Below, piece after piece: positions 2,240-59,984 of a stretch of 64,000 nt of DNA (the first letter of the stretch is position 1; each line of letters begins with the position of its first letter). A model generated the notes under the pieces. That model saw only the letters and a program-made list of their open reading frames with translations, ran no database searches and was not told the origin of the DNA. The translations under genes were made by a program, and so were the position numbers. Location of the stretch: contig CAVSGM010000001.1 of assembly GCA_963727485.1 (NCBI GenBank), forward strand, positions 274,006 to 338,005, read 5' to 3'. The DNA is from an uncultured delta proteobacterium (GTDB taxonomy: Bacteria > Myxococcota > Myxococcia > SLRQ01).

Positions 2240-2323
2240 CGCCCGGGTCCGCCCTGGCGCAGAGGCTGCAAACCATAGGATGACCGCACCCGCCGGGTGC
2301 AACAGGTCGCGACAGAGACGTAC

Positions 2324-9978: not shown

Positions 9979-10916
9979 CCCGGGCCGCGACCCTGAGCAC
10001 CCTCGCCTGGCGGGACGACCTGGCGTCGACGGTGAAGGGCACCCTCCTCGCCGACGAGCCCCTGGCGCGCCACACCACGCTCGCCATCGGCGGCCCCGCC
10101 GAGGCCTGGTTCGAGCCGGCGGACACCGCGGATCTCGCCGGTGCCCTGTCGCTGGTGCGCCGGGCCCGGGTGCCCTACTGCGTGGTCGGCGGCGGCTCCA
10201 ACCTCCTGGTCGGCGACCGCGGGGTGCGGGGCCTGGTGGTCCACCTCGGCCGGGACTCCTCCCAGGTGGAGGAGACGGAGACCGACGGCGGCGTCCGCGT
10301 GGTCTACCCCGCGGGGATGCCCACCAGCATGGTGCGCCGCCACGCCCGGGAGCGGGGGCTCATCGGCCCCGAGTTCCTCATCGGCATCCCCGGGACCCTC
10401 GGCGGCGCCATCCAGATGAACGCCGGCACCCGCCTGGGGGAGATGGTCGACGTGGTCGCCGGCGCCGAGGTGGCGCTCCCCGAGGGGCCGCGGTGGCTCT
10501 CCGCCGAGGACTTCGGCTTCGCCTACCGGCAGGCCACCGTGCCCGAGGGCGGCGTCGTCACCCGCATCGCCCTCAACCTGAAGCGCGCCACCACCGAGGC
10601 GGCCGCCGCCGCCCGGGACGCCGCCAAGAACGAGCTGAAGCAGCGCCACGCCACCCAGCCCAAGGGAAAGAGCGCCGGCTCCATCTTCAAGAATCCCCCC
10701 GGCGACCACGCCGGCAGGCTCATCGAAGAGGTGGGCCTCAAGGGCCGTCGCGTCGGGGGCGCGGTGGTCAGCGAGGTCCACGCGAACTTCATCCTCAACG
10801 ACGGCGGCGCCACCGCCCGGGACGTCCTCGCGCTCATCGAGGTCTGCCGGGACACGGTGGCGCTGGCCACCGGGGTGTTCCTCGAGCTCGAGGTCCGCCT
10901 CCTGGGAAGCTTCTGA
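9975..10916 (+). CDS. murB: UDP-N-acetylenolpyruvoylglucosamine reductase MurB
   Basis: 313 aa from ATG 9975, overlapping the murC stop. FAD-binding PCMH domain (GGGSNLLV) and MurB C-terminal domain. Confidence 0.9.
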
Positions 10917-10918
10917 TC

Positions 10919-11857
<939 letters not shown>

Positions 11858-11862
11858 CGATC

Positions 11863-12696
11863 ATGGCGCGCAAGTCCAACAAGCGGCGGACGGATCCCAC
11901 GGTGGCCCGCGACAAGGTGCGCGGGGCGGCGCGGAGCGCGTTCGGCTTCGTGGCCCGGCTCCTCGGGGCGGCGGTGGTGGTCGCCGGCACCTTCGCCGCG
12001 GTCATCGCCACCTACCTGTGGATGACCACCTCCTCGCGTTTCGCGGTGCGCGAGGTGGACATCGCCGGCAACCACCACGCCACCCTCGCCGAGCTGGCGC
12101 CCCTGACCGGCCTGGCCCAGGGCACCAACCTGTTCCTGGTCAACGCCGACGAGGTCGCCGCCCGCCTCGAGTCCCACCCCTGGGTGCGCACCGCGGTGGT
12201 GCGCCGGGTCTTCCCCTCCACGGTGCAGGTCACGGTGGACGAGCACCACGCGGTGGCCCTGGTGGCCCTCGGGGGCCTCTACCTCGCCGACGCCGAGGGG
12301 CAGGTGTTCAAGCGCGCCGTCCCCGGCGACCCCATGGGGCTCCCGGTGATCACCGGCCTGAAGCGGGGCGAGGGCGAGGCCGGACGGGCCGCCCTCGAGG
12401 CCGGGGTGCGCCAGGCGCTCACGGTGGCCCGCGACTGGCGCCACTCGCCCATGGCCAAGGTGGCCCGGCTCTCGGAGATCCACCTCGATCCCCTCGCCGG
12501 CGTGAGCCTCACCGCCGCCGGCGACGCGGGGGACGGCAAGCCGATGGTGGTGCACCTCGGCCACCACGATCTCGTGCGGCGGCTTCTGCGACTGCACCAG
12601 CTCTGGACCACCCTGTCGGCGCGCGGGCAGCGCCCCCAGGAGGTCTTTCTCGACAACCACACGCGACCACAGTGGGTGGTGGCGCGGGTGGACTGA
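11863..12696 (+). CDS. ftsQ: Cell division protein FtsQ
   Basis: 277 aa from ATG 11863. Basic N-terminus, single TM (AAVVVAGTFAAVIATYLW), POTRA-like domain. Position between ddl and ftsA. Confidence 0.85.
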   Translation: MARKSNKRRTDPTVARDKVRGAARSAFGFVARLLGAAVVVAGTFAAVIATYLWMTTSSRFAVREVDIAGNHHATLAELAPLTGLAQGTNLFLVNADEVAARLESHPWVRTAVVRRVFPSTVQVTVDEHHAVALVALGGLYLADAEGQVFKRAVPGDPMGLPVITGLKRGEGEAGRAALEAGVRQALTVARDWRHSPMAKVARLSEIHLDPLAGVSLTAAGDAGDGKPMVVHLGHHDLVRRLLRLHQLWTTLSARGQRPQEVFLDNHTRPQWVVARVD

Positions 12697-12781
12697 ACGC
12701 GGCATCCACGAAGGACCGGACACGGGTGAGAGCCCGGGCGACAGGGGAGACCCGAGCCAACGTCACGGTCGAGGAGGGACA

Positions 12782-14013
12782 ATGGCAAAGCGAGGCGAGC
12801 TGATCGTCGGACTCGACATCGGGACCACCAAGATCTGCGCGATCGTCGGTGAGGTCACCGAGACCGGGTCCATCGACATCATCGGAATCGGCACCCACCC
12901 GTCCAAGGGGCTGCGCAAGGGCGTGGTGATCAACATCGAGTCCACGGTGGACTCCATCAAGAAGGCCATCGAGGAGGCCGAGCTCATGGCCGGCTGCGAG
13001 ATCAGCACGGTCTACGCCGGCATCGCCGGGGGGCACATCAAGGGGATTCAACAGCCACGGCGTCGTGGCGGTGAAGGACAAGGAGGTCACCAAGACCGAC
13101 GTGGACCGGGTGATCGACGCGGCCAAGGCCATCGCCATCCCCATGGACCGCGAGGTGATCCACATCCTCCCCCAGGAGTTCATCGTCGACGACCAGGACG
13201 GGATCCGCGAGCCCCTCGGGATGAGCGGGGTCCGCCTCGAGGCCCAGGTGCACATCGTCACCGGCGCGGTCACGTAGCGCCCAGAACATCATCAAGTGCG
13301 CCAACCGCTGCGGCCTCAACGTCGCCGACATCGTCCTGGAGCAGCTGGCCAGCTCCGAGGCGGTGCTCACCGACGACGAGAAGGAGCTGGGGGTGGCCCT
13401 GGTGGACATCGGCGGCGGCACCACCGACATCGCCATCTTCTCCGAGGGGGCCATCGTCCACACCAGCGTCCTGGCGGTGGGCGGCAACCACCTCACCAAC
13501 GACATCGCGGTGGGGCTGCGCACGCCCACCCACGAGGCGGAGAAGATCAAGCAGAAGTACGGCTGCGCCATGAGCGCCATGGTCGACCGCGAGGAGACCA
13601 TCGAGGTCCCCAGCGTCGGCGGCCGGCCGCCCCGGGTGCTCTCCCGGCAGATCCTCTGCGAGATCATCGAGCCCCGGGTGGAAGAGATGTTCATGCTGGT
13701 GCAGCGCGAGCTCCAGAAGTCGGGCTACGAGGACCTGCTGGCCAGCGGGGTGGTCATCACCGGCGGCTCCACGCTGCTGGAGGGGATGCCCGAGCTCGCC
13801 GAGGACGTGCTGGGCCTGCCGGTGCGGCGCGGGCTGCCCCGGGGAATCGGCGGGCTGGTCGATGTGGTCAGGAGCCCGATGTACGCCACCGGCGTGGGCC
13901 TGGTGCTCTACGGCAGCCAGAACACCGACGCCAAGCACTTCCGGGTGCGCGACGAGAACGTCTACGGGAAGGTCCGGGGCCGGATGAAGTCGTGGCTGGC
14001 GGATCTCTTCTAG
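12782..14013 (+). CDS. ftsA: Cell division protein FtsA; frame broken by two apparent +1 single-base insertions (about 13046 and 13275)
   Basis: Three consecutive pieces in frames 2, 0 and 1 together form a complete FtsA. Piece 1: MAKRGELIVGLDIGTTKICAIVGE...IAGGHIKG. Piece 2: FNSHGVVAVKDKEVT...VHIVTGAVT. Piece 3: SAQNIIKCANRCGLNV...VDIGGGTTDIAIFSEG... to KSWLADLF. Removing a from gggAttcaac and t from acgTagcgcc restores a contiguous ~409-aa actin-like ATPase. Confidence 0.88.
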
Positions 14014-14097: not shown

Positions 14098-15387
<1,290 letters not shown>

Positions 15388-15485: not shown

Positions 15486-16217
15486 ATGCCCACCCGCGAC
15501 CTCAACTGGCGAATCCACGAGAAGAGCGCCGACCAGACCCGGATCCTCGACGGGATCCTGGCCCGGCTGGAGGACGCCGGCGACACCCCGGTGGCCACCT
15601 TCGACCTCGACTCCACCCTCTTCGACAACCGCACCCGGCAGCTCGCCATCCTCACCGAGTTCGCCGAGCGCGCGGGCCTCGAGGGGGTGGGGCGCCTGAC
15701 GCCCGAGGAGATCGACGGGTGGCTGGTGGCCGACGCCATCGCGCGCCTCGACGGGGTCGACGGCCGCCTCGACGCCCTGAAGGCCGAGTTCAAGGCCTTC
15801 TGGCGCACCCGCTTCTTCACCAGCGAGATGTGCCGCCACGACGTGCCGCTCCCCGGCGCCGCCGACTTCGTGAACGACGTCGCCGGGGTGGGCACCCAGG
15901 TCATCTACCTCACCGGTCGCCACGAGCCCATGCGCGCCGGCAGCGCCGAGAGCCTGAAGGCCGGCGGCTTCCCCGAGGGGCGCCTGATCATGAAGCCCAC
16001 CCTGGAGATGACCGACACCGCGTTCAAGGAGCTGGCGGTCGGCGAGATCCGCCCCCTGGGCCCGGTGCTCGCCTGCTTCGACAACGAGACCACGCATGTG
16101 AACCGCCTCCGGGCGGCCTTCCCCGACGCCACGGTGGTCTGGATCCAGACCGACCACTCCCCGGAGGCGGAGCCGGTGGCCGACGGCGTGCCGGCGATCC
16201 ACGGGTTCCTGCGCTAG
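15486..16217 (+). CDS. HAD-superfamily hydrolase (phosphatase-like)
   Basis: 243 aa. HAD motif I FDLDSTLFDN (DxDxT), later conserved K and DD-type motifs. SD-like AGGAAG 8 nt upstream of the ATG. Confidence 0.75.
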   Translation: MPTRDLNWRIHEKSADQTRILDGILARLEDAGDTPVATFDLDSTLFDNRTRQLAILTEFAERAGLEGVGRLTPEEIDGWLVADAIARLDGVDGRLDALKAEFKAFWRTRFFTSEMCRHDVPLPGAADFVNDVAGVGTQVIYLTGRHEPMRAGSAESLKAGGFPEGRLIMKPTLEMTDTAFKELAVGEIRPLGPVLACFDNETTHVNRLRAAFPDATVVWIQTDHSPEAEPVADGVPAIHGFLR

Positions 16218-16248
16218 GCCGGGGCCCGCGCGTCCTCGAGGCGCCGCT

Positions 16249-16734
16249 TCATCGCCCTCGCGCGCGCCGGTGCTGCGGGAACTCGAAGTGGACGAGGGGG
16301 TGCCGGATCACCAGGCGCCCGGCCTCCCGCGTCCGGGCCGGGCGGGTGTCGCAGATTGTCGCGCCCAGGAGGCGATCCAGGCGCCGGTGACCCAAGGGCG
16401 TCAGCGCCAGGGCCAGGGTGCCGGCGACGGTGAGGGCGCCGACGGTCGCGAGGATCCCCCGGACGACTGGCCAGGCCCGCCGGCGCCGGGGCACCGGCGC
16501 GACCGCCTGCACCCCGTCGAGGAAGGCGAAGGGATCCTCGTCGGGACCGAGGCGCGGGCGGTGGCGGGCCGCGCGGCCGGCGGTGAGGGCGGCGCCAAGG
16601 GCGAGGGTGGCGAGGCCGAGGTCCCAGGGGGCGGGGAGCCAGGGGAAGCCGGCGACCCGGCCCACGAGGAGGCCGGCGGTGGCGAAGCTGGCGACGGCGG
16701 AGAGCTGCAGGGGCAGGCGGGGATCGCGGGTCAT
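16249..16734 (-). CDS. Hypothetical membrane protein (2-3 TM), probably co-transcribed downstream of the 16749..17387 gene
   Basis: 161-aa ORF from ATG 16734, found by hand inside the longer track ORF 16249..16980. Almost exclusively G/C at third codon positions, two hydrophobic helices. It lies 14 nt after the upstream gene's stop, and the opposite-strand ORF is G/E-rich junk. Confidence 0.45.
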   Translation of the reverse strand: MTRDPRLPLQLSAVASFATAGLLVGRVAGFPWLPAPWDLGLATLALGAALTAGRAARHRPRLGPDEDPFAFLDGVQAVAPVPRRRRAWPVVRGILATVGALTVAGTLALALTPLGHRRLDRLLGATICDTRPARTREAGRLVIRHPLVHFEFPQHRRARGR

Positions 16735-16748
16735 GGTGGCCTCTCGGG

Positions 16749-17387
16749 TCACAGGCAGGCCTCGGCGGTGTCGCTGCAGGAAGGGAAGCTGCTGCCGAAC
16801 ATTGCCCGGACGTTGTCGCCGAACGCCGAGATCAGGAAGGCGATCAGGGCCAGGATCGCCACCCCCTTCAGCACTCGGCCGGCCAGCCAGTGGGCGCCCC
16901 AGCGGCCCTGGCCCAGCGACCATCCCCGTCGCCCCAGGTACATCCCGGCACCGCCGGCAGCGGCCGCGATGGCGACCCACGGGGAGAGGACGGCGGCGGC
17001 GAGGTCCATGGCGTCATGCCAGGTGGCGGCAAAGGCCGCGCCGCCGACGAGGCCGTAGAGGGCCAGGCCGCCTACGGCGCCGGCGATGAGGGCCCAGAGG
17101 AGGAACGCGCCCCGGGCGCCGGCGAGGTGGCGGCGGGCGGCGCAGCGCAGCCGCCAGGCCCCCAGGCGCCGGGCACGGAAGAGGCCGTCGGTGAGGCGCC
17201 GGCGCCACCTGCGGCTCCGGGTCCAGGCGAGGTAGCCACCGGCGCCGGCGAGGGCGACGCCGAGGCCGACGCTGAGCACCTCGCCCGAGCCGTGCCCGCC
17301 CAACACGACGTCGGGCTTCAGGGCGACGCCGGCGACCACCCCGGCGATCAGGGAGGCGACGGGCATCTTGAGTGAACCGACGGTCAT
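16749..17387 (-). CDS. Small polytopic membrane protein of unknown function, family member P1 (C-terminal motif FGSSFPSCSDTAEAC)
   Basis: About 213 aa from ATG 17387 (alternative ATG at 17366). 4-5 TM helices, Arg-rich cytoplasmic loop LFRARRLGAWRLRCAARRHL. A clear paralog of the C-terminal half of ORF 17601..19043. Confidence 0.6.
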   Translation of the reverse strand: MTVGSLKMPVASLIAGVVAGVALKPDVVLGGHGSGEVLSVGLGVALAGAGGYLAWTRSRRWRRRLTDGLFRARRLGAWRLRCAARRHLAGARGAFLLWALIAGAVGGLALYGLVGGAAFAATWHDAMDLAAAVLSPWVAIAAAAGGAGMYLGRRGWSLGQGRWGAHWLAGRVLKGVAILALIAFLISAFGDNVRAMFGSSFPSCSDTAEACL

Positions 17388-17518
17388 CGGGAGGTGCCTC
17401 CCACGGCGAGGGCCGGGACCGGGCGACCGGGCTCGGGCGCGGTCAGAAGGACCGTCGGGCGAGGGGTGCGGGTGGCGTTCGACATGACCCGAGCATGACG
17501 CGCCCGGCCGCCCTCGAA

Positions 17519-17546
17519 AATCGGCCAGACGTCCGTCGGACGAACG
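17519..17546. promoter_or_regulatory. Conserved motif site A: AATCGGCCAGACGTCCGTCGGACGAACG containing the perfect palindrome CGTCCG-T-CGGACG
   Basis: Located in the 213-bp intergenic region upstream (coding-strand sense) of the 16749..17387 gene. Near-identical copy at 21192..21219 and a diverged copy at 21965..21992, each upstream of a minus-strand gene of the same family. Confidence 0.5.
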
Positions 17547-17600
17547 TTCGTCGGTCGGTTGACGTACCCGCTCCCGCACCGACCGCCACGGGGCCCGCCG

Positions 17601-19043
17601 TCACTGCGTGCCGCCGTGGAGGCGGGCGAAGGTCTCGAGGTTGAGGTGGCCGTCGAGGCGCTGGGACCGCGAGCGCGCGGCGTCCTGCTCCGCCTCGTAC
17701 ATCGCCTGACCCAGCTGGCAGCTCGGATGGGCGCCGAAGAGCTCGCGCAGGCGTGGACCGATCACCATCGCGGTCGCCTGGGTCGCCAGGGCGAGCACGG
17801 TCACCGCGCCGACCGCCGCGAGGCAACCGCGGACCAGGGGCCAGACCCGGCGCGGCCGCGCGGCCCGCCGGAGTCGGCGCCGCTCGCGGGCGCAGCGGTG
17901 GTTCCAGGCGGCAAGGCGTCGGGCGCGGTAGAGCGCGTCGAGGCCCCGGCGGCGCAGGCGCCGTGTCCCGGCCCAGAGGGCGGCGGCCGCCACCCCCGCC
18001 AGGAGCGCCGCCAGGTACGCCGGCGCCAGGGCGAAGCCCGCGACCATCCCCACGACCAGGGCGGCGCCGGCGCGCTTCGCCGCCGGGGCCCGGGCGTCGG
18101 TGGCCTGGAGGGGGACGGGCGGGGTGCGCTGGGGGGCAGCTCTCATGGTGGCGCTCCGGCAGGGGTGGGGGCGACGAGCTTCAGGGTCCCCGGCCGGGCC
18201 CGGGACCGGGGCGGGGTGGGCGGCGGGTCGGTGTCGAGGCGCAGGCACCGGGCGCCGTCGGTGCAGGGGCGATTCGAGCTCGGCCCCGCCGGCGTTCGAG
18301 GCCAGAGGTGAGCACGCGAGGTGCGCCCCGGGCTCCATCCCCCCGTGGCTCAGTTCGAGCTTGCAGAGCCGGGGGTGATGGCCCAGCCCGGCGACGAGCC
18401 CGGTCTGGGCGTCGAATCGCCAGAGGTCGGCCTGGGCGTCGGCGTCGTTGGTGTAGGGCGAAAGGTCGACGCGCCCGTGGGGGCGGTAGGCGACCGTCTC
18501 GGAGACCAGGAGCCGGGTGGCGACGCCCTTGGCCCGAAAGGGGCCCACGGTGACCCGGACCTCGTGCCTCGGGGCGCGGTACCCGACCACCTGGCACCGC
18601 TCGTCGAGGCGCACCGGGTGGCCGGGGAAGGCGGCGCGGACCCGGGCGAGGGCGTCGTGGTCCCAGTGCCAGGCGAGGAGGCCGAAGGGTCCGCAGGGCA
18701 GGCGCACGGGCCCGCTGTCGGTGCCGTGGTCGATGTGGCGCCAGGTGCGGTAGCTCGCGTCCGCGCTCCCGGCCACCAGGAGCCCGAAGCACACGGCGAC
18801 GAAGGTCAGGGTGCGACGGCCGCGCCGCCCGGCCCGGTGGCCCCGCCAGGTCCAGGCCAGCACGCCGCCGGCCACCAGCTCCAGGATCGCCAGCGTCGTG
18901 CCGTAGGCGCCGTCGAGGTGACGGTAGGCGGCCCAGGGGAGGACCAGGAGCACCGCCGCGGAGACGAGGGCGATGGCCCCGCCCAGGACGAAGGCGAAGG
19001 TCCCGAGGGAGTTCGGGGGATCGGTGCGGGGTGCGGTTTCCAT
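17601..19043 (-). CDS. Membrane protein of unknown function. N-terminal half (P3) has 3 TM plus one copy of the ARVRAAFPG repeat module. C-terminal half (P2) is a paralog of the 16749..17387 protein. Possibly two genes fused by a lost stop.
   Basis: Continuous ORF. The N-terminal part (METAPRT...) has 3 TM then ...ALARVRAAFPGHPVRLDERC... The C-terminal about 190 aa share LYRARRLAAWNHRCARERRRL and FGAHPSCQLGQA with P1. ATG 19043 chosen (GGAG 8 nt upstream). The longer track ORF start at 19097 would overlap the upstream gene. Confidence 0.5.
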   Translation of the reverse strand: METAPRTDPPNSLGTFAFVLGGAIALVSAAVLLVLPWAAYRHLDGAYGTTLAILELVAGGVLAWTWRGHRAGRRGRRTLTFVAVCFGLLVAGSADASYRTWRHIDHGTDSGPVRLPCGPFGLLAWHWDHDALARVRAAFPGHPVRLDERCQVVGYRAPRHEVRVTVGPFRAKGVATRLLVSETVAYRPHGRVDLSPYTNDADAQADLWRFDAQTGLVAGLGHHPRLCKLELSHGGMEPGAHLACSPLASNAGGAELESPLHRRRPVPAPRHRPAAHPAPVPGPAGDPEARRPHPCRSATMRAAPQRTPPVPLQATDARAPAAKRAGAALVVGMVAGFALAPAYLAALLAGVAAAALWAGTRRLRRRGLDALYRARRLAAWNHRCARERRRLRRAARPRRVWPLVRGCLAAVGAVTVLALATQATAMVIGPRLRELFGAHPSCQLGQAMYEAEQDAARSRSQRLDGHLNLETFARLHGGTQ

Positions 19044-19071
19044 GGGGTCTCCGGTGGACGGCGCGGTGGGT

Positions 19072-21156
19072 TCAGCCTCCCGAGGCCGGGGTGGCACCCG
19101 GGAGGCCCGGGACGCGGAGCTTGGCGCAGGGCTTGGGCACCTCGGGCATCTTGTCGCCGCTCGCCTCGACGACCGCCGCGTCGATGGGACAGCGGTTCTT
19201 CACCATCACGTCCGGGCGCATCAGGGTCACCCCGGCCTCCGCCACCCGCCGGGGCTCGCAGTACACCGCGGCGAAGGCCGGGGCGTTGGCGATGCCGGCG
19301 CTGTTGAGCACGCAGAGGCGCGGACCCTTCGCCGGCCGGGGACGGAAGCGGTGGCTCCGGTCGACCCGGCGCGCCAGGGCCCGGGCCGCCGCGAGGGTCG
19401 AGAGCGGCGAGAGGGAGACCCGGGGTGCCGAGAGGCTGCCCTCTACCACCACGTCCACGGTGAGGACGAGGTCGGTGCGCCCGTGGTGGAAGCGGCCGAC
19501 CTCGGCCCAGAGCCGTCGGGTGGTGCCCTGGGCCCGGCAGCCTTCGGTGAGGGCCACCATCTTGCCGGGGAAGGCGGCCCGCACCCGCGCCAGGGCCAGG
19601 CGGCGCCAGGCGTCGGTGTCGGGGCCGCAGCGGGAGTCCAGGGAGCCGAGGGGGCCGGGGTCGTCCCGGGCGGAGGCAGAGCGGGGCGGGGGCGCCGGGT
19701 GCCGGGGCACCTCGGGGACGCCCCGGCCGGAGATGGTGACGCAGTTCCACCCGCCGATGCGGCACGCCCGGCCGGCGTCGAGGGTCTGCTGGTGGAAGAC
19801 GTCGAGGTCGACGTCCTTCCACAGGAGCAGCGCGGTGCCCACCTGCCCCGCCTCGGCGGGGACACACCGGGCGGTCCAGCTCCCGATCCCGTCGGGGGTG
19901 CCGGGTCGCGACGGGTCGTCGCCGGGCTCCACCACGCACAGGTGCGCGGCGCCGCTCCGGGCGTCGAGGGCCCGGAGCACCTGGCGGGCGGCGCCGAGGT
20001 CGGCGAAGGGCCGGATGTGGACCTGGGTCTCGCGCCCGTGGCCGGTGACCGAGACGTGGAGATCGAGGATGAAGCTCGAGCCCACGCCCCGGGCGGTGAC
20101 CCGGCCGGCGCGGATCCAGAAGATGCCCGCCGGTGGGTGGTCGATGGCGTCGTCCTGGTCGGGCACGGTGCGGCGTACCGTCAGGCCGGGAAAGGCGGCG
20201 CGGGTCCGGGCGAGGGCGAGGCGTGCGGCCTTGGGCCCCTGGCGAAGCGCGGGCTTCGGAGGCGGGATCGCGGCCGGCGCGGAGGGGCGGGTGAACTCGG
20301 AGAGGCTCCGGTGGTGCACGAGCGGCATGGTGAGGCAGGGCGAGCCGACGGTGAAGCCGCAGTCGCCCACGTCGAGGGCGTGGCCGAAGAGGAACCCGGT
20401 GCCGGCGTCGGAGGTCAGGTTGCAGCCGATCTCCTCCGTGCCCGCGTCGGTGAGGCAGTCCACGTGCCTGTCCCCGAAGGCGAGGCGGACCCGGTCGCTC
20501 CGGGCGAGCCGGCGCAGGGCCTTCCGGGCCGCGGCGAGGTCGGCGTAGGGCGCCAGCGGCCGCGGCGTCCCCTCATCGTCGACCGGGGCGCTGGCCTGGA
20601 CGTAGAGGCGGACGTGGAGCCCGGGGACCACCACCGGGCCGACCTTGTAGCCGAGGTCCCAGTGGTCGTCGTCGTAGAGGGGACGGTCGTCGGTCTCCAT
20701 CTGCAGGCCCGGGAAGGCGGCCCGGATCCGGGCCCGCACCGCCGGGAGCGCCTCGCAGGGCTCGGTGTCGCCGTCGCAGGACGGACCGGCGAAGGTCTTC
20801 AGGCGGCGGTGCTCGTCCACGCCGGGCGCCAGCTTCACGGGGAGGCGCGGGGAGCCATCGTCGCTCGGCCAGTCCCCGTGGAACCAGGTGGCCCCGTCCA
20901 CGAGGAGGAACCCGCCGACCGTCAGGCCCAGGGCCAGCGCGGTCCAGCCCAGCCCCCGGAGCACCGACCACCAGGGGCTGAAGGGGTTGGGGGCGACGAG
21001 GAAGGCGGCCAGGAAGGTGAGTGCGCCAATCGCCAGGGTCCAGATCCCGGCGAGCACCGGCCAACCCAGGGCGCTCCCGGCGAGCCAGCCGACGAGGACG
21101 CTCGCCCCGAGCACGCGGAGGAGAAAGGCGAGGCGTCGGCGGAGGGGGGTGTTCAT
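19072..21156 (-). CDS. Large membrane-anchored protein of unknown function (P4): 3 N-terminal TM helices plus three tandem ~90-aa repeat modules (A-x-A-R-x-R-A-A-F-P-G ... A-D-L-x-A-A-R-x-x-L-R-x-L)
   Basis: 695 aa from ATG 21156 (MNTPLRRRLAFLL...). Internal repeats beginning AVRARIRAAFPGL, ALARTRAAFPGL and ALARVRAAFPGK. Cys motif FAGPSCDGDTEPCEAL resembles the C-termini of P1/P2. The opposite-strand 852-aa ORF is G/E/R-rich junk. Confidence 0.6.
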   Translation of the reverse strand: MNTPLRRRLAFLLRVLGASVLVGWLAGSALGWPVLAGIWTLAIGALTFLAAFLVAPNPFSPWWSVLRGLGWTALALGLTVGGFLLVDGATWFHGDWPSDDGSPRLPVKLAPGVDEHRRLKTFAGPSCDGDTEPCEALPAVRARIRAAFPGLQMETDDRPLYDDDHWDLGYKVGPVVVPGLHVRLYVQASAPVDDEGTPRPLAPYADLAAARKALRRLARSDRVRLAFGDRHVDCLTDAGTEEIGCNLTSDAGTGFLFGHALDVGDCGFTVGSPCLTMPLVHHRSLSEFTRPSAPAAIPPPKPALRQGPKAARLALARTRAAFPGLTVRRTVPDQDDAIDHPPAGIFWIRAGRVTARGVGSSFILDLHVSVTGHGRETQVHIRPFADLGAARQVLRALDARSGAAHLCVVEPGDDPSRPGTPDGIGSWTARCVPAEAGQVGTALLLWKDVDLDVFHQQTLDAGRACRIGGWNCVTISGRGVPEVPRHPAPPPRSASARDDPGPLGSLDSRCGPDTDAWRRLALARVRAAFPGKMVALTEGCRAQGTTRRLWAEVGRFHHGRTDLVLTVDVVVEGSLSAPRVSLSPLSTLAAARALARRVDRSHRFRPRPAKGPRLCVLNSAGIANAPAFAAVYCEPRRVAEAGVTLMRPDVMVKNRCPIDAAVVEASGDKMPEVPKPCAKLRVPGLPGATPASGG

Positions 21157-21191
21157 GGTCCCCAAGCTTCCGGCGTCGGTCGCCACGCGAC

Positions 21192-21219
21192 AATCGGCCG
21201 ACCGTCCGTCGGACGAATG
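21192..21219. promoter_or_regulatory. Conserved motif site B: AATCGGCCGACCGTCCGTCGGACGAATG (palindrome CGTCCG-T-CGGACG), 36-63 nt upstream of the P4 start codon
   Basis: 25/28 identical to site A. Followed by a partial third repeat, GACAATCGTCCG. Confidence 0.5.
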
Positions 21220-21527
21220 ACCGTTGGACAATCGTCCGATGCGTCGTCGTGCCATCTGGCAGTCCGTCAAAGTGCCATACGGCAGACTGGCGTCAGCGCG
21301 GGCCCACCCCGTTCAGGGGGGCGCAGCCGAGCCACCACCCGGGCACCACGGGGACCCGGCTCACCCGGAGCCGCACCACCCGGTCGCCGCCGCCAGCGCC
21401 ACAACGAGCCCCAGGTCCACGACCAGGATCCACTGGTGCACCCGGAGGCCCACGACCACAGCCCCGCGGAGAGGAGGGCCAGGAGCGCCGTGGTGGCGGC
21501 CAGGAGGGCGGTGCGCACCGGGCCTGC

Positions 21528-21932
21528 CTAGGGTCCGTCGCGCCCGGCGCGGAAGTAGCGCTCGATGGCCGAGGGCTTGTCGGCGCCGGGGCCGGTGTAG
21601 CGCTGGAGCTTCGGGCCCGCCGGCGCCGGCCTGGCCGCGGGCGCGTCGGGGTCATAGGCCTTGAGCGTCCGGTGGTCCGGTTTCGAGGCCGGCGGGGGCG
21701 CGCCGACCGGTGCCGGCCGGGACGGCTCCACCCCCGAGAAATCCGCGGTGCGGGCGCCGAAGAGCCGGCGGATCTGGGGGGCGAAGAGCACCATCCCGGC
21801 CCACAGCACCAGGACCAGGATGCCGACGGCGGCGAGGGCCTCGCGCCAGAGGCGGCGGCGGCGCGGGGCGGGCGTGGGGGGCGCCGGGGTCGCGGCGGGA
21901 TCGGGCGGGGGGATAGCGGGGCCGGGGGACAT
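21528..21932 (-). CDS. Small Pro-rich single-TM protein of unknown function (P5)
   Basis: 134 aa. Pro/Ala-rich N-terminus, one TM (ALAAVGILVLVLWAGMVLFA), then QIRRLFGARTADF resembling the R-x-(L/M)-F-G motif that precedes the Cys motif in P1/P2. Preceded by motif site C. Confidence 0.45.
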   Translation of the reverse strand: MSPGPAIPPPDPAATPAPPTPAPRRRRLWREALAAVGILVLVLWAGMVLFAPQIRRLFGARTADFSGVEPSRPAPVGAPPPASKPDHRTLKAYDPDAPAARPAPAGPKLQRYTGPGADKPSAIERYFRAGRDGP

Positions 21933-21964
21933 GGCCCGACCCTGCCGGATCCGGAAATCCCCGG

Positions 21965-21992
21965 CAATCGGTCACCCGACCGTCGGGCGATC
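21965..21992. promoter_or_regulatory. Diverged motif site C: CAATCGGTCACCCGACCGTCGGGCGATC upstream of the 21528..21932 gene
   Basis: Shares AATCGG(C/T)C and the CG(A/T)CCGTCGG(A/G)CGA core with sites A and B. Confidence 0.35.
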
Positions 21993-26799: not shown

Positions 26800-26942
26800 C
26801 GGTGTTCGAGCCCGTAGATGTCCCGAGAGAGTCTGCATGAGACCCGTGTCAGATCGGGACAAATCGGGGAGTTGCGCGATCGGTGTCCGCAGGCGAACAC
26901 GAAGGACGTTCGCCAGCGAACACAAAACCGGTTCGTCTGCGG

Positions 26943-28004
26943 GAGATCAGGGGGGGCGGGCTTCGGGGCGCGCGGCGTGGGGGCGGCTCCGGCGGTCCCG
27001 GTGATCGCCGCGCCGTGGGGGCGCTCGTCGAGGGTCAGGGGCGTGACCGCGTAGCGCTGGCCGTCGGTGCGCACCCGCACCGGCCCCCCGACCACCGTCA
27101 CCGCCTCCGGGAGGTGCAGGGGCGGGCAGCCGCGGCCCGGGCGGGGCCGGCCGGTGAGGAGCACCCGGGCGCCGCTGCGCACCAGCCGCTCGAGGACCGC
27201 CTCGCCGGGCCCGCAGCGCCCGGGGCCGGTGGAGACGATGGCCACCGCCGGGGACACCGCCCGGAGAAACGCCGCGGAGGTCGAGGTGTCGGCGCCCCCG
27301 GCGGAGACCCGGAGGACGTCGACGTGGCCCACCGCCGACCCCAGGGGGGTCTCCACGTCCGCGGTCCCCTCGCCGCCCCCGGGGAGCGCGCCGGCGGTGA
27401 GGTAGCGGAAGGCGCCGTCGGTGAGGAGCAGCGCCAGCGACCGCCCGGCGGCGTCGTGGACCTTCACCCGGGCGCCGCCTACCACCGCACCGTTCACCGC
27501 CATCACCCGGGCGACCACGCCGTCCCCGAGGTCGATGCGGTCGCCGGGGCGGGCGGTGGTGTGGTGGCCGGCGGCGAGGGTGCCGTAGCCCAGGCACTCG
27601 AGGCTGGTGCAGGTGAAGTCACGGCCGTAGTCGAGGAGGACGCCCCTTGGGACCGTGTCGTCGGCGGTCCCCGGCTGGCCGTCGCGACCGGCGAGGAGCA
27701 TCACCAGCCCGCCCACGGTGGAGGTGGCGAGGTGGCTGACCACCACGTGGTCCGGGGGCAGGGCGTGGTGGCGGCGCAGGGTGGTGAAGAGGACCGCGGT
27801 CGAGGGGCCCGGGGGGCCGCCGTCGATGAGGAGGCTGTCCCCGCGCGGGGCGTCGACCAGGGTGGCCTCGCCGGCGCCCACGTCGAGGACGGTGATCTCC
27901 AGGACCTGCTTGCCGGCGAGGGCCGGGGCGGTGGGGACCGGGGCGGCGGTGCGGCAGCCGGAGGCGGCGAGGACCAGGACGACGGCGGCGGCGCGGAGGC
28001 GCAT
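26943..28004 (-). CDS. Lipoprotein with metallo-beta-lactamase fold (ComEC C-terminal-domain-like); 3' end uncertain because the ORF reads through a G7 homopolymer with no stop
   Basis: Lipobox VLAASGC. ITVLDVGAGEATLVDAPRGDSLLIDGG is the MBL-fold motif of ComEC/Rec2-type hydrolases. As written, the ORF continues to 26124 through the neighboring regulator gene in another frame. One extra C in the 26951-26957 run would create a TGA, giving a protein ending ...PKPAPP. Confidence 0.55.
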
Positions 28005-28031
28005 GGGGACGACGGGGGCCCGGGGGCGGCG

Positions 28032-29078
28032 CTAGCGGCGCAGGAAGATCAGCCCGGCGACGAGGAGGGCCAGGGCCCCGGCGGCGCCGAGGACCAGGGC
28101 CAGGAGCCGGCCGTGCCTGGCTTCGGCGACCTGCGGCGGTGGCGTCGCGGCGGGCGCGGTGGGGGGCGGCGCGGCCGGGGCCCTGGGGGCGGCGGCCTTC
28201 GCCGGGGCGGCCGGGGGCGCGGCGGTGTCGGCCCGGGCGGCGGGGGCGGGCGGCGCCGGGGCGGCGGGGGCGGCGGCCTTCGCCGGCGGGGACGCCGAGG
28301 GCGCGAAGGCCGCCCGGGAGGCGTGGAGCCGGGGCCGGGGATGGCGGCGCGGGATCCGGTGCCGGGGGTGGGGCCGGGGGGGCGCCGCCCGGGCCACCAC
28401 CCGGGCCGGGTGCCCGGCGTCGGCCTTGGCGTCGGCCTCGGCGAGGGCCACCGTCCCCCCGTCGGCCGCTCCGGCGGCCACCTTCCTGGCGCCGGCATCG
28501 GCGGTGCCCCCGTCGGGGGCGAAGGCGAGCAGCCGCGCCTTGGGTGGCGGCGGGAGGTCGGTGCTGTCGACCCGGGCCAGCATCGTCGGGGTCGCGCGCA
28601 TCGCCAGGCGGTAGTGGTGCTGCGGGTCCTCGACCTTCGGCCGGGCGGCGAGGCGGGTGCGCACGTCGACGGCGAGGCCCTTCTGGGCGGTGAGGCGCAG
28701 GCCCCCGGCGAGGGTGATCTCGAAGTGGCGCCCGTAGGACGCCTGGCGATCCCAGGTGACCTCGAGGCTCACCTGGTGGGGCCCCGGCGCGACCGTCCCC
28801 GACCACAGCCGCACCGAGGTGATCCCGGGCCCCGCGGCGGCGCCGCCGAGGTGGACCACCTTCCCGTCGAGCCTGGCGGTGACCGTGTCGAGGACCATCC
28901 CCTCGGGGCCCGCGGGCTCGATGGTGAGGCTAAGCCGGGGCGCCGGGATCTTCACCAGGGCGTGGAGCTCCTGGTCCAGCTCCTGGCGGGCCCGGGCCTC
29001 GTCGCTCCCGGCGGCGTGGGAGGCCGCCGGGGCCAGGATCACCAGGCAGGCGAGGATGATGCGGATGCGCACGAACAT
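28032..29078 (-). CDS. Secreted, C-terminally membrane-anchored protein with a long Ala/Pro-rich low-complexity linker
   Basis: 348 aa from ATG 29078. Signal peptide MFVRIRIILACLVILAPAASHA, a ~200-aa globular region, then a PAAPAKAAAP-type repeat linker and a C-terminal TM (LLALVLGAAGALALLVAGLIFLRR). Confidence 0.5.
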   Translation of the reverse strand: MFVRIRIILACLVILAPAASHAAGSDEARARQELDQELHALVKIPAPRLSLTIEPAGPEGMVLDTVTARLDGKVVHLGGAAAGPGITSVRLWSGTVAPGPHQVSLEVTWDRQASYGRHFEITLAGGLRLTAQKGLAVDVRTRLAARPKVEDPQHHYRLAMRATPTMLARVDSTDLPPPPKARLLAFAPDGGTADAGARKVAAGAADGGTVALAEADAKADAGHPARVVARAAPPRPHPRHRIPRRHPRPRLHASRAAFAPSASPPAKAAAPAAPAPPAPAARADTAAPPAAPAKAAAPRAPAAPPPTAPAATPPPQVAEARHGRLLALVLGAAGALALLVAGLIFLRR

Positions 29079-29207
29079 GGACCTTCCCCCGGCCGGCATC
29101 CTACCATCCCCCCTGCCGCCGGGGGAGGGCACCCGGTCCCGCGCTTGCATTCCGTGGTATCGGTGTAAACTTCCGGGTCGGATTCCTGTGTCCGGGGGAA
29201 AAGAAGC

Positions 29208-29666
29208 ATGTCGCGCGTCCGATTCACCGTCGAGCTGGTCAAGCGTGGCCAGACCCTGTGCTTCGAGCTGCCAGAGGTGGCCAGCGCCAAGCTCGTGCAC
29301 CGGGGACGGGTGCCGATCAGCGGGAGCCTCAACAGCTTCCCGGTCCACACCTCGATCTTCCCCGACGACGACGGTGGCCACTTCATGACCGTGAGCCCGG
29401 ACATCCAGCGGATGGCCGGGGTGAAGGCCGGGGACCACGTGAAGGTCATCCTCGACCTCTCCAGCCAGCCGCGCACCGTCGAGGTGCCCGGCGACCTGGC
29501 CCGGGCCCTGGAGCGGGTCGCCGAGGCCCAGGAGGCCTTCGAGCGCCTCGCCTACTCCCACCAGCGGGAGTACGTGGAGTGGATCGAGGAGGCCAAGCGC
29601 CCGGAGACCCGGGCCCGGCGGATCGAGAAGACCGTCGAGCGCCTCCGCGAGACCCCGGCGCCCTGA
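29208..29666 (+). CDS. DUF1905 plus YdeI/OmpD-associated (OmdA) domain protein
   Basis: 152 aa. N-terminal RVPISGSLNSFPVHTSIFPDDDGGHFMTV pattern of DUF1905. The C-terminal AQEAFERLAYSHQREYVEWIEEAKRPETRARRIEKTVERL matches the YdeI/OmdA helix. SD GGGGGAAAAG upstream. Confidence 0.6.
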   Translation: MSRVRFTVELVKRGQTLCFELPEVASAKLVHRGRVPISGSLNSFPVHTSIFPDDDGGHFMTVSPDIQRMAGVKAGDHVKVILDLSSQPRTVEVPGDLARALERVAEAQEAFERLAYSHQREYVEWIEEAKRPETRARRIEKTVERLRETPAP

Positions 29667-29755: not shown

Positions 29756-31879
29756 ATGGCGACGAAGGGCAAGGGCGGCGGCCGGAGGCCCCGGGCGAAG
29801 CAGGGCGACGAGCCCGCCGAGCCCCCCCGGACGCAGGCGGAAGGGCGGGCACGACCCGGGCCGAGCTCCGTCGTCCCCGCGCTCCCCGCCGGAGACGGAG
29901 GCCGGCGCCGGGTGGTCATCGAGGCGGTCTCCCCGGAGATCGACGGCGGGCGCCACGCCGCCAAGGCGGTCCTCGGAGACGCGGTGCCGGTGGGCGCCGA
30001 CGTCTACGCCGACGGCCACGATCTCCTCCGGGTGGTCTGCCGCTATCGCCGGGACGGTGACCGCGCCTGGCGCGAGGTCGCCCTGGCGCCCGAGGGGAAC
30101 GACCGCTGGTCCGGGCGCTTCCCGGTCACCGGGCTCGGCCCCTGGCGCTTCACCGTGGTCGCCTGGATCGATCGCTTCGGGACCTGGCGCCGGGACCTCG
30201 CCCGCAGACAGGCCGCGTCGGTGGTCACCGCCGCCGACCTCGCCCTCGGCGCCAACCTGGTCGACGCCGCCGCCGCCCGGGCCGAAGGCGACGACGCCCG
30301 GGACCTCGCCCGGGTCGCCCGCCGGCTCCGGGGCCGGGGGCGCCTCGAGGCCCGGGTCGCCACCGCCCTCGAGGAGGGCCTCGCCGAGCGCGTCGCCCGT
30401 CACGCCGAGCGCACCTACGAGGTGACCTACGCCCAGGAGCTGCCGGTGTGGGTCGACCCGGTGCGGGCGCGCTTCTCCGCCTGGTACGAGCTCTTCCCCC
30501 GCTCGGCCTCCCCGGATCCCTCGCGCCCGGGCACCCTGAAGGACGTGGAGGCGCGGCTCCCCTACGTGGCCCGCCTCGGCTTCGACACCCTCTACCTGCC
30601 GCCCATCCACCCCATCGGGCGGGCCAAGCGCAAGGGCCCCAACAACCGCACCGAGGCCGAGCCCGGCGATCCCGGGAGCCCCTGGGCCATCGGCAGCGCC
30701 GAGGGCGGGCACCTTTCGGTCAACCCCGAGCTGGGCACCCTCGACGACCTGCGGCGCCTGGTGGCCCGGGCCCGGGATCACTTCGGCCTCGAGGTGGCCC
30801 TCGACATCGCCTTCCAGTGCGCCCCCGACCACCCCTGGGTGAAGGCCCACCCGAGCTGGTTCGCCCACCGCCCCGACGGCACCCTCCAGTACGCCGAGAA
30901 CCCGCCGAAGAAGTACGAGGACATCGTCCCCTTCGACTTCGAGAGCGCCGACTGGCAGGCCCTGTGGCAGGCGCTCCTCGGGGTCTTCGAGCACTGGATC
31001 GCCGCGGGGGTGAAGACCTTCCGCGTCGACAACCCCCACACCAAGAGCCTGCGCTTCTGGGCCTGGTGTCTGGAGGCGGTCAAGCGCCGGCACCCCGAGG
31101 TGGTCTTCCTCTCCGAGGCCTTCACCCGGCCGCGGGTGATGTACGGGCTGGCCAAGGTCGGCTTCACCCAGAGCTACACCTACTTCGCCTGGAAGAACGC
31201 CAAGTGGGAGCTCGAGCAGTGGTGGAACGAGACCCTGCGTCCGGAGATCCAGGCGATCTACCGGCCCAACCTCTGGCCCAACACCCCCGACATCCTCAAC
31301 GCCTACCTCCAGGACGGCGGGGTGGGGGCGTTCCGGGTGCGCCTGGTCCTCGCGGCGACGCTGGGGGCGAGCTACGGGATCTACGGCCCCCCCTTCGAGC
31401 TGATGGCGCACACCCCGAGGGCGCCCGGGAGCGAGGAGTACCTCGACTCGGAGAAGTACCAGGTGCGCCACTGGGACCTCGACCGGCCGGAGAGCCTGGC
31501 GCCGCTGATCACCCGCATCAACCGCATCCGCCGGGAGAACCCGGCGCTCCACGGCTACACCGGCTTCGCCTTCCATCCGGTGGACAACGACCAGCTGATC
31601 TGCTTCTCCAAGCACACCGAGGATCTGTCGAACGTCATCGTGGTGGTGGCGAACCTCGACCCCCACCACCGCCAGAGCGGCTGGGTGACCCTGCCCCTCG
31701 AAGCGCTGGGGATCGCAGGCGACCGGCCCTACCAGGTCCACGACCTCATCGGCGACGCCCGCTACCTCTGGTCCGGCGCCACCAACTACGTGGCGCTCGA
31801 CCCGGCGGTGATGCCCGCTCACGTGTTCCAGGTGCGCCGTCACCTGCGCACCGAGCGCGACTTCGACTACTACCTCTAG
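29756..31879 (+). CDS. glgE: Alpha-1,4-glucan:maltose-1-phosphate maltosyltransferase GlgE
   Basis: 707 aa. GH13_3-type catalytic core ([38 protein letters not shown]). Domain order typical of GlgE, including an N-terminal Gly/Arg-rich tail. Confidence 0.88.
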
Positions 31880-31886
31880 GACGGCC

Positions 31887-35249
<3,363 letters not shown>

Positions 35250-35250
35250 G

Positions 35251-37346: not shown

Positions 37347-37347
<1 letters not shown>
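35251..37347 (+). CDS. malQ: 4-alpha-glucanotransferase (amylomaltase) MalQ
   Basis: 698 aa. GH77 motifs (GVVMPLYALRG, DLPVGVHPDGYDVW, RIDHVMGLHRLFWVP). Confidence 0.85.
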
Positions 37348-39541
<2,194 letters not shown>

Positions 39542-47650: not shown

Positions 47651-47678
47651 CGTGTTTCCCCCCTCTGGTGATCGGCGC

Positions 47679-53362: not shown

Positions 53363-53388
53363 CTTCGACTCCTGGTTCGCGGAAGGGT

Positions 53389-58134: not shown

Positions 58135-58140
58135 TGGCGT

Positions 58141-58542: not shown

Positions 58543-58554
58543 GGGAGTCTCACT

Positions 58555-59982: not shown

Positions 59983-59984
59983 GG

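Follow-up and report, generated by a model that had tools for sequence, protein, structure and literature searches.

A hypervariable island of paralogous membrane proteins bearing an orphan, predicted periplasmic module in an uncultured bacterial lineage

The 64-kb stretch of DNA analyzed here (the window) carries, between positions 16249 and 21932 of its minus strand, a cluster of related genes designated P0 to P5. These open reading frames are real coding genes, because their third-position GC content (GC3) reaches 0.87–0.97 in exactly their own phases (P0, P1, P2+P3, P4 and P5). GC2 is lower than GC1 across the same ORFs, as expected for the minus strand. The ORFs on the opposite strand were rejected as true genes, since the GC1, GC2 and GC3 phases match the minus strand only. 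Public gene calls contain the same five products, with P2 and P3 as one. Together with the alignments and a family HMM, these data confirm the suggestion of an earlier note that five or six adjacent minus-strand genes are related.

Four of the genes encode a membrane anchor followed by a short tail only. P0 (16249..16734, minus; 161 aa) has three transmembrane (TM) helices, an Arg-rich loop between the second and the third, and the sequence R-L-D-R-L-L-G-A past the last helix; its assignment draws on GC3 phase, an exact public gene call, alignment and the TM scan, and alignment with P2, P5 and their relatives groups it with the anchor-only paralogues. P1 (16749..17387, minus; 212 aa), identified by GC3, public gene call, alignment and TM scan, has five TM helices, a cytoplasmic loop with 13 Lys and Arg in 36 residues, and a predicted periplasmic tail V-R-A-M-F-G-S-S-F-P-S-C-x5-C. 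P1-like genes are found in two related loci, L001 and L002. Directly upstream of P1 is an ORF of 33 codons (17384..17485, minus), which starts 33 nt past an operator-like motif and whose end shares an ATGA with the start codon of P1. Its N-terminus resembles that of the P1-like gene of L001, so P1 may truly start in this ORF, with a frame problem in between. P2 (17601..18146, minus; 181 aa) has three TM helices in the TM scan, 18 Lys and Arg in a cytoplasmic loop of 39 residues, the post-TM motif P-R-L-R-E-L-F-G-A-H-P-S-C and a tag-like C-terminal H-L-N-L-E-T-F. P5 (21528..21932, minus; 134 aa), supported by GC3 phase, public gene call, alignment and TM scan, has a single TM helix, the post-TM motif Q-I-R-R-L-F-G-A and the tag D-H-R-T-L-K-A-Y. 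Between P5 and P4 lies a small ORF (21267..21518, minus) with a hydrophobic N-terminus and weak GC3; its frame is uncertain, because a near-identical contig carries an additional A at 21454 and encodes there a 52-aa peptide with two hydrophobic helices.

Alignments display the kinship of P0, P1, P2 and P5 and their membrane-adjacent R-x-L-F-G-A motif. The relationship of P1 and P2, and the R-x-L-F-G motif they share with P5, had been noticed earlier. The previous estimate of four to five TM helices for both P1 and P2 holds for P1 (five), whereas hydropathy gives three for P2, as it does for P0, P3 and P4, and one for P5. Comparison of the TM anchors of the module-bearing and anchor-only gene types by hhalign gives a probability of 67% over 26 columns only. 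The TM scan and the positive-inside loops suggest that each protein spans the membrane with one to five TM helices, most often three, that an Arg-rich loop in the cytoplasm precedes the final helix, and that the C-terminal part lies in the periplasm. This part consists of one or more copies of a repeat module in P3 and P4.

P2 and P3 had been treated as one unit (17601-19043), but are two genes. In a contig of 99.78% identity the T at 18273 is absent, and the genes for P3 (299 aa) and P2 (181 aa; P0010) are separate, overlapping by ATGA. In the window, the GC3 phase slips where the T is inserted. The extra T is therefore an indel artifact that fuses P2 to P3 and breaks the P3 frame, and a natural fusion was rejected. 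The data derive entirely from metagenome assemblies, which are prone to error, of an uncultured lineage. Frameshifted copies of the family occur in L001, L002 and the window. The window assembly contains further indels, at 21454 and 21774 and, in ftsZ, at 14356, 14611 and 14632, and we attribute the frameshifts of the island to assembly errors for this reason.

P3 (18143..19043, minus; 299 aa in the corrected frame) combines three TM helices with one predicted periplasmic module, the typical form of the family. P4 (19072-21156, minus), called from GC3 phase and present in public gene calls, joins a 3-TM anchor to three modules. The anchor (residues 1-119; 20800..21156, minus) ends in the tag E-H-R-R-L-K-T-F just before module A (residues 120-305; 20242..20799, minus), which itself ends with the tag H-H-R-S-L-S-E-F and a Pro-rich linker. 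Module B (residues 306-502; 19651..20241, minus) has no Cys ahead of its first helix, and module C (residues 503-694; 19075..19650, minus) is, of the three, the one most similar to the other family members. With P4 left out, an HMM of P3 and 13 homologues matches P4 three times (i-E 2e-8, 3e-9 and 1e-23); this and the TM scan bear out the architecture of one module in P3 and three in P4 after a 3-TM anchor. A-R-x-R-A-A-F-P-G is invariant among the four aligned copies, which at the DNA level form a 65-nt family of four copies. Measuring about 170–190 aa rather than the proposed 90 aa, the repeat unit comprises a core of about 95 aa and a Cys-bearing beta-hairpin part, PRLC...C. The Cys motif said to precede every module is missing from module B. 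In the family alignment the conserved module positions are mainly core hydrophobic residues, Gly/Pro turns and Cys, with no recognizable catalytic motif among them. The invariant motifs are CGPFG, AFPG, VGPF, PY and PRLC, and V-G-P-F is the most conserved motif of the hairpin. The Cys, AFPG, GPF and PY positions are kept even in a relative with an MFS gene only 72% identical.

The AlphaFold model of P3 exceeds a pLDDT of 90 over residues 120-230, a confident fold from just 17–18 sequences. The predicted module consists of a helix packed on a four-stranded antiparallel sheet, a second helix, and then a Cys-bridged beta-hairpin. The P3 ectodomain contains six Cys, and the module cysteines probably form two or three disulfides. 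The module matches no described sequence family in the libraries searched, in line with the earlier note calling it unrecognized, but is structurally recognizable: it models as a cystatin/PepSY-like alpha+beta roll, a likeness at the level of the fold only. Profile searches assign it to no well-characterized domain. Models from Pfam, NCBIfam, PADLOC and PHROGs give no significant match to the family proteins (nothing at E ≤ 1 in PADLOC-DB, only E ≥ 0.07 in PHROGs), and the family profile finds TM noise only among PDB sequences. Weak structural matches include the ToxR periplasmic domain and histidine-kinase-associated folds.

A shared upstream DNA motif, already suspected, is present in three exact copies. 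The 64 kb contain the sequence CCGACGGNCGNNNGNCCGATT three times, once each upstream of P1, P4 and P5 and nowhere else, whereas 0.25 occurrences were expected and none of 100 shuffles reached three. The element of P1 (17488..17554, core 17519-17539, minus) contains the palindromic TCGTCCG-A-CGGACG, followed by GGCCGATT. Those of P4 (21161..21227, core 21192-21212, minus) and P5 (21935..22001, core 21966-21986, minus) end 35 and 33 nt before the ATG, respectively. Exact or near-exact copies are found in L001, L002 and L003, nine of which have their 3' end 33–37 nt away from a start codon, and other loci hold 53 matches with ≤3 mismatches in 1.26 Mb. Scans for sigma-70 promoters and terminators found nothing, and Rfam has no match in the window. 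The genes would form three transcription units: P5, P4-P3-P2 and P1-P0. Since the same palindromic operator/promoter element precedes every unit, all three are probably under the control of a single dimeric regulator.

The family is exceedingly rare. A profile of the four repeat units, compared with 1.84 billion proteins, recovered 18 including P4; about 14 of the other 17 are credible members, nearly all of them 228–331 aa long with one module. A word-indexed protein search with P4 returned P4 itself only, and with family alignments only members from the same loci. Pattern scans found no relative among GTDB species representatives, scanned with P3, or among IMG/VR viral contigs, and one 1.1-kb contig in JGI metagenomes. 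The relatives P0014 and P0020 are also on contigs no longer than 1.1 kb. Across the public data searched, the family is seen in about six samples; it is a genuine orphan family confined to one rare uncultured bacterial lineage.

Related loci carry 8–11 paralogues without Pfam matches and differ in gene content, always between the same MFS and HAD phosphatase genes. The order is thioesterase-MFS-[island]-HAD-ftsZ in L001, L002 and L085, and MFS-island-HAD in L003. Module-type and anchor-type genes, whose co-occurrence the earlier note had proposed to check, are found together in each of the four loci whose length permits a judgment. DNA identity is 96% and 89% in the flanks, while the island retains only patches of 66–80%, and P4, P5 and P1 have no DNA match. 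Synonymous divergence jumps from a dS of 0.01 on the HAD/ftsZ side to 0.28–0.6 inside the island. The dN/dS of island pairs is 0.71–1.11, against 0.17–0.55 in four of five flanking genes (the fifth, HAD, shows no non-synonymous change); all of these ratios are inflated because dS is compressed at a genome GC3 of about 0.95, and values near 1 could also mean weak constraint. A single metagenome sample, ERZ25039500, contains three variants of the island. The island is hypervariable, rapidly diversifying and lineage-restricted, and occupies a fixed chromosomal site. An origin from a prophage or mobile element was rejected, with no integrase or phage match and an island GC of 75–77%, not below the flanks.

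We tentatively propose that the island encodes co-regulated, inner-membrane-tethered periplasmic binding proteins of an inhibitor or immunity type, a reading that is possible but short of probable. Stoichiometric binding by the tethered periplasmic domains would be the most likely mechanism, because the module combines the absence of a catalytic motif with a predicted fold of the kind found in cystatins, in PepSY/FTP propeptides and in Cmi, the immunity protein against colicin M. The domains would capture and neutralize or restrain proteins acting in the periplasm, for example proteases or hydrolases of the cell wall, made by the cell itself or sent in by competitors. The rapid evolution of the proteins and their turnover between strains fit a role in an arms race or immunity better than housekeeping. 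On the other hand, the conserved V-G-P-F hairpin suggests a common target, which suits a diverse immunity array less well. No gene for a target enzyme, toxin, secretion system or regulator was found in the 64-kb window, and a Pfam scan of ORFs throughout it gave no gene for a toxin, Rhs, T6SS or bacteriocin.

In a less likely reading, the proteins are PepSY-type regulators of cell-wall synthesis or hydrolysis, similar to TseB, CopD or YpeB, whose tethered domains and TM anchors position or stabilize penicillin-binding proteins or lytic enzymes, as a lineage-specific accessory of the dcw/ftsZ cluster. A functional tie to ftsZ or division is unsupported: the cluster is convergent with ftsZ, the HAD gene lies in between, and HAD and FtsZ are 99–100% identical in protein sequence between relatives whose islands are hypervariable. 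The position beside ftsZ looks incidental. Of the dedicated envelope-associated system proposed previously, the related proteins with their modular, predicted extracytoplasmic part and the shared DNA motif stand, and the link to ftsZ does not. It is rather improbable that the proteins are accessory sensors or co-receptors, as in ToxR/ToxS, with the module sensing an envelope cue and signaling through its TM helices to a kinase, protease or anti-sigma factor whose gene lies elsewhere. The weak matches to ToxR and histidine-kinase-associated folds agree with sensing, the shared operator suggests a regulated response, and the TM anchor with its Arg-rich loop is more conserved in its architecture than plain tethering needs. 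However, the proteins have no cytoplasmic output domain; the island and the surrounding ±20 kb contain no kinase, sigma factor or site-2 protease gene; P0-P5 have no Pfam or NCBIfam match to an anti-sigma domain, and no sigma gene is among the window ORFs scanned. High copy number and turnover are also unusual for sensors.

The three variants in one sample and the jump in divergence at the island are what a polymorphic family of self/non-self recognition or cargo proteins might produce, with variable paralogues marking strains or passing between cells. We consider this very unlikely, as predicted inner-membrane anchoring keeps the domains beyond the reach of other cells, and no lipobox, outer-membrane signal or known recognition domain was found. 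A dN/dS of 0.7–1.1, the frameshifted copies and the orphan status in databases could instead signify decaying, functionless ORFs, the residue of recent duplications drifting neutrally. This is highly improbable given a GC3 of 0.92–0.97 in all the genes, the motif positions retained out to the relative with the 72%-identical MFS, the confident fold, the preserved spacing between upstream motif and start codon, and the frameshifts being assembly errors. A further observation concerns the tag H-R-[TS]-L-[KE]-[TS]-F, located 6–14 residues from the C-terminus in both module-bearing and anchor-only proteins and internal in P4, before and after module A. Conceivably, although the odds are clearly against it, the tag is a lineage-specific sorting, processing or docking signal. 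The island would then be a cassette system in which tag-bracketed modules are shuffled between anchors by recombination, yielding co-regulated periplasmic binders that are specific to each strain. P4 would then have arisen by fusion or be a polyprotein that is cut at the tags.

The locus adds a previously undescribed family of foldable, predicted extracytoplasmic domains and a companion family of small Arg-rich membrane anchors, in an evolutionary setting of a fixed site, a shared operator and gene content varying among strains of the same sample. Under the inhibitor or immunity reading, it would represent a new type of periplasmic self-protection or defense array in an uncultured lineage, the nearest MAGs of which carry a delta-proteobacterial label, and the conserved C-terminal tag would indicate an unknown recognition machinery. 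If the tag reading were true, the island would be a diversifying envelope immunity locus of a new kind, equipped with a recognition tag of its own. Extreme rarity (about six samples) and the frequent occurrence of orphan paralogue islands in metagenome-assembled genomes limit the importance of the finding.

Several known domains resemble the module in part. Its 17-residue helix P-Y-A-D-L-A-A-A-R-K-A-L-R-R-L is similar to helix 2 of SPOR, and the cluster lies near division genes. SPOR (PF05036) was nevertheless rejected: P4 scores 15.7 bits against a cut-off of 21 with 17 residues covered, one of 17 members matches (best E 1e-4), and the predicted module fold does not match the beta-alpha-beta-beta-alpha-beta (RNP-like) fold of SPOR. 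Compared with PepSY/FTP domains (YpeB, YpmB, TseB/CopD, fungalysin propeptide), the module is about twice as long and adds a second helix, a Cys-bridged hairpin, probable disulfides and invariant motifs of its own; PF03413 and PF07504 give nothing at E ≤ 1 in the 17 members or the five window proteins. Cystatins and tandem multicystatins resemble the modeled fold only, with no Pfam cystatin match, and the module proteins are bacterial and membrane-anchored. The QxVxG hairpin, PW loop and N-terminal Gly of cystatins (PF00031) are absent from the family alignment, where V-G-P-F is the sequence of the conserved hairpin. The NTF2-like periplasmic domains of VirB8, DotI and TraM likewise resemble the module at the fold level only, and no type IV secretion genes are near the island. 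Cmi (PDB 2xgl) matches with a low structural score and without sequence similarity, and no toxin gene adjoins the island. In toxin-immunity pairs such as colicin M/Cmi or the T6SS effectors with their immunity proteins, the immunity gene adjoins its cognate toxin, whereas no toxin gene is among the window ORFs scanned here. The island does share with these systems small, predicted membrane-tethered or periplasmic domains and strain-variable arrays of paralogues, and an orphan immunity array is possible.

Since the window has a G+C content of about 74%, third-position GC reveals its coding frames. From 16240 to 21940, GC3 reaches 0.87-0.97 in the exact phases of five minus-strand ORFs with GC2 below GC1, the order expected of the minus strand, and public gene calls on a 1.25-Mb NCBI contig agree on all five products (161, 212, 480, 694 and 134 aa). 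The minus-strand genes proposed in the earlier note are therefore real: P0 (16249-16734), P1 (16749-17387), P2+P3 (17601-19043), P4 (19072-21156) and P5 (21528-21932). P2+P3, however, is not one gene. A contig from ENA sample ERZ25039500 (L085), 99.78% identical to the window across 12.8 kb, lacks the T found at 18273, so that P3 (299 aa) and P2 (181 aa) are separate genes with an ATGA overlap; in the window, the GC3 phase shifts at the same place. We infer that the fusion is an assembly artefact, since the window assembly carries further indels in ftsZ and the nearest database genomes are metagenome MAGs. Compared with an intact 429-aa orthologue on contig L001, ftsZ (14098-15387, plus strand) has indels at 14356, 14611 and 14632, comprising two separate extra C and one 2-nt deletion. 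They put about 92 codons, among them those of the GGGTGTG tubulin signature, out of frame without closing the ORF, and are almost certainly assembly indels and not the mark of a pseudogene. Neither assembly is fully correct: the C at 21774 is absent from L085 (7312-7683 region), where the P5 frame is therefore broken and 67 aa are called, and at 21454 L085 has an extra A, so that the small ORF separating P5 from P4 encodes there a 52-aa peptide containing two hydrophobic helices.

Several other stretches of the window (2239-3788, 4927-7163, 10916-13038, 26925-29208 and 53362-56674) have no single GC3-supported ORF; they fall within gene clusters such as dcw, and are probably more genes frameshifted by assembly indel errors. 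In the FtsI-type transpeptidase that opens the dcw cluster, the C-terminal part (27-677, plus strand) contains a PASTA domain (E 5e-10). PASTA domains occur mostly in Gram-positive PBPs, and their presence is unusual in a lineage whose nearest MAGs carry a delta-proteobacterial label. The GlgE-pathway alpha-glucan cluster at 29756-39541 (plus strand; GlgE, a TreS-maltokinase-type fusion, MalQ and another alpha-amylase-family protein) and the polysaccharide biosynthesis cluster at 46883-62119 (minus strand; WecG, GH44, GT2 and a flippase-like protein) are ordinary and bear no relation to the island.

Across its four copies, of which P4 has three and P3 has one, the module keeps A-R-x-R-A-A-F-P-G invariant at an overall identity of 23-29%; in the DNA these copies are visible as a 65-nt family with four members. 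An HMM built from P3 and 13 homologues, with P4 left out, recovers all three P4 copies (i-E 2e-8, 3e-9 and 1e-23), which bears out the proposed repetition. The unit is not the suggested ~90 aa but ~170-190 aa, consisting of a ~95-aa core and a part bearing a conserved P-R-L-C...C, to which most family members add a further C-x(3-8)-C strand. The Cys motif said to precede each module fails for module B of P4, where no Cys lies ahead of the first helix. The C-terminal part of the flanking HAD phosphatase (15486-16217, plus strand) reads N-R-L-R-A-A-F-P-D-A-T-V-V, near the module's A-R-x-R-A-A-F-P-G-x-x-V; this likeness, in which a helix cap leads into a strand, is probably a coincidence.

The family is exceedingly sparse in available data. 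As a query, P4 matches itself alone in a word-indexed set of 5.8 billion proteins. A four-unit profile run without a word filter against 1.84 billion representative proteins returned 18, including P4; among the 17 others, approximately 14 are credible members, and almost all of these have the P3 architecture (228-331 aa, two or three TM helices, one module), so the three-module P4 is unique. Pattern scans detected no relatives in 185,579 GTDB species genomes or in IMG/VR, and a single 1.1-kb contig with a relative in JGI metagenomes. The anchor-only family (P0, P1, P2 and P5) is equally restricted at the available search sensitivity. Profile searches of Pfam, NCBIfam, PADLOC, PHROGs and PDB sequences gave no significant match to the island families, in agreement with the earlier failure to assign them.

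The anchor-only proteins align across their last TM helix and a membrane-adjoining motif, [LVI]-R-x-[LM]-F-G-A, which supports their proposed paralogy. A hydropathy scan finds three TM helices in P0, P2, P3 and P4, five in P1 and one in P5; of the 4-5 helices claimed for both P1 and P2, the figure holds for P1 only. Between module-bearing and anchor-only proteins, the TM anchors may be homologous (hhalign probability of 67%, over 26 columns). Ahead of the last TM helix lies a basic loop (K+R 18/39 in P2, 13/36 in P1, 8/35 in P0 and 5/11 in P3). By the positive-inside rule, the C-terminal parts, which hold all conserved Cys, would be periplasmic, and disulfides may form in the module ectodomain. 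Module-bearing and anchor-only proteins alike carry a short tag, [RHG]-[RTSHN]-L-[KESDT]-[TESDA]-[FY] (consensus H-R-[TS]-L-[KE]-[TS]-F), with 13 occurrences in the 8,856 residues of the island proteins versus one in 12,890 residues of other window proteins. Ten of the 13 are close to the C-terminus, 6-14 residues away from it. P4 has internal tags, one before and one after module A, and thus looks as if paralogous cassettes had been fused.

Also confirmed is the DNA motif shared upstream of the genes: CCGACGGNCGNNNGNCCGATT occurs three times in the 64 kb, only before P1, P4 and P5, whereas 0.25 occurrences are expected and none of 100 shuffles reached three. Its unit is a 15-nt palindrome, TCGTCCG-A-CGGACGA, in one to three overlapping tandem copies followed by GGCCGAT(T/G). 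Exact or near-exact copies precede island genes on three further contigs (L001, L002 and L003), and at most three mismatches give 53 matches at other loci in 1.26 Mb scanned. Nine times, a start codon is found 33-37 nt from the 3' end of the element. In the window the element delimits three units: P5, P4-P3-P2 (28-nt gap, then overlap) and P1-P0 (14-nt gap). A 33-codon minus-strand ORF (17384-17485) has its ATG at the canonical 33 nt from the element, and the ATGA at its end overlaps the annotated P1 start. At its N-terminus it resembles the P1-like gene in L001; it would be either a leader ORF coupled to P1 or the real start of P1, hidden by a frame error. Scans for a sigma-70 consensus, a terminator or an Rfam family found none, and no regulator gene for the element was identified. 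Being palindromic and keeping its distance to the start codon, the site fits an operator that would overlap a promoter and be bound by a dimeric regulator, and the island genes are likely to be co-regulated.

AlphaFold2, given only 17-18 family sequences, models a P3 orthologue with pLDDT > 90 at residues 120-230. Long helices (12-40, 47-70 and 76-105) and a short strand are followed by a helix ending in A-F-P-G (124-138), four strands (144-153, 159-169, 176-186 and 192-195), two helices (200-211 and 214-220) and three more strands (225-231, 240-246 and 267-271). P4 module C is modelled with the same element order (pLDDT > 90 at residues 10-100). Structural comparison scores highest with a designed cystatin fold (4r80, 6.5), followed by the fungalysin propeptide, multicystatin, cystatins, VirB8 and YpeB C-terminal PepSY domains (5.0-5.2), YpmB (4.8), the ToxR periplasmic domain and latexin (4.6), FoxB and UipA PepSY domains (4.3) and colicin M immunity protein (4.2). 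Conservation falls on core hydrophobics that alternate along strand 3, on Gly/Pro turns (AFPG, VGPF, PY) and on Cys, with no recognisable catalytic motif among these positions; the ectodomain is confidently predicted to be alpha+beta and non-enzymatic. A SPOR assignment was rejected: it covered one helix only, below the Pfam cut-off, in 1 of 17 members, the element order is unlike that of the module, and no SPOR domain is among the structural matches listed.

Three further loci have usable context, L001 and L002 from ERZ25039500 and L003 from a Logan run. In all three the family lies between the same MFS transporter and HAD phosphatase, with ftsZ-ftsA-ftsQ-ddl-murB after HAD in L001. Each locus holds 8-11 genes without Pfam matches, differing in content but including several P3-like genes plus P1-, P2- and P0/P5-like genes; the two gene types thus co-occur wherever a locus is long enough to judge, a point that the earlier note had proposed to check for P1-like and P4-like genes. 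The more distant L003 also encodes, inside the island on the opposite strand, a 340-aa membrane protein (2036-3058, minus strand) with a weak SecDF P1-head match and no window counterpart. Between the window and L001, DNA identity is 96.3% in the dcw flank (7.7 kb) and 88.9% in the MFS flank (4.5 kb), but within the island only patches of 66-80% align, and P4, P5 and P1 lack a DNA counterpart. Nei-Gojobori dN/dS is 0.71-1.11 for island pairs versus 0.17-0.55 for four of five flanking genes, the fifth, HAD, having zero non-synonymous changes; the very high genome GC3 inflates the absolute values, while the contrast between island and flanks stands. The step in dS, from 0.01 (HAD, FtsZ) to 0.28-0.60 in the island and 0.25 in MFS, suggests a recombination boundary at the island. 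Within the ERZ25039500 metagenome, L001, L002 and L085 present three different island versions, each between the same flanking genes. The closest GTDB genomes (MFS 78-80% identical) lack the family within 10 kb of the MFS orthologue, where synteny is not kept.

The island holds a genuine multigene family of membrane proteins, orphan and restricted to one lineage, which occupies a fixed site in the chromosome; its proteins diverge fast and its genes turn over. The fold class of the family, its tethering to the membrane, its arms-race-like evolution and the absence of any recognisable catalytic motif lead us to favour, tentatively and at somewhat less than even odds, tethered periplasmic binders of inhibitor or immunity type; the tethered domains would act on proteases or cell-wall hydrolases, whether these belong to the cell itself or come from outside. 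The chief alternative is that the proteins regulate cell-wall enzymes in the PepSY manner and are tied to the dcw cluster next to them, with TseB, CopD and YpeB as precedents (PMC10653890). The earlier note described the system as sitting right beside ftsZ. The island is convergent on ftsZ, the HAD gene lies between them, and the island varies among strains with nearly identical FtsZ, all of which weaken the case for such a regulator. Readings of the island as a sensor, as a recognition locus or as junk ORFs are less likely.

The family itself is solid, if extremely rare and confined to an uncultured lineage, and is unusual in its tag, putative operator, three-module fusion and strain polymorphism. 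The island proteins belong to no described family and come near known kinds at the fold level only. With the putative binder role, the island is similar in kind to the known hypervariable arrays of small tethered periplasmic binders.
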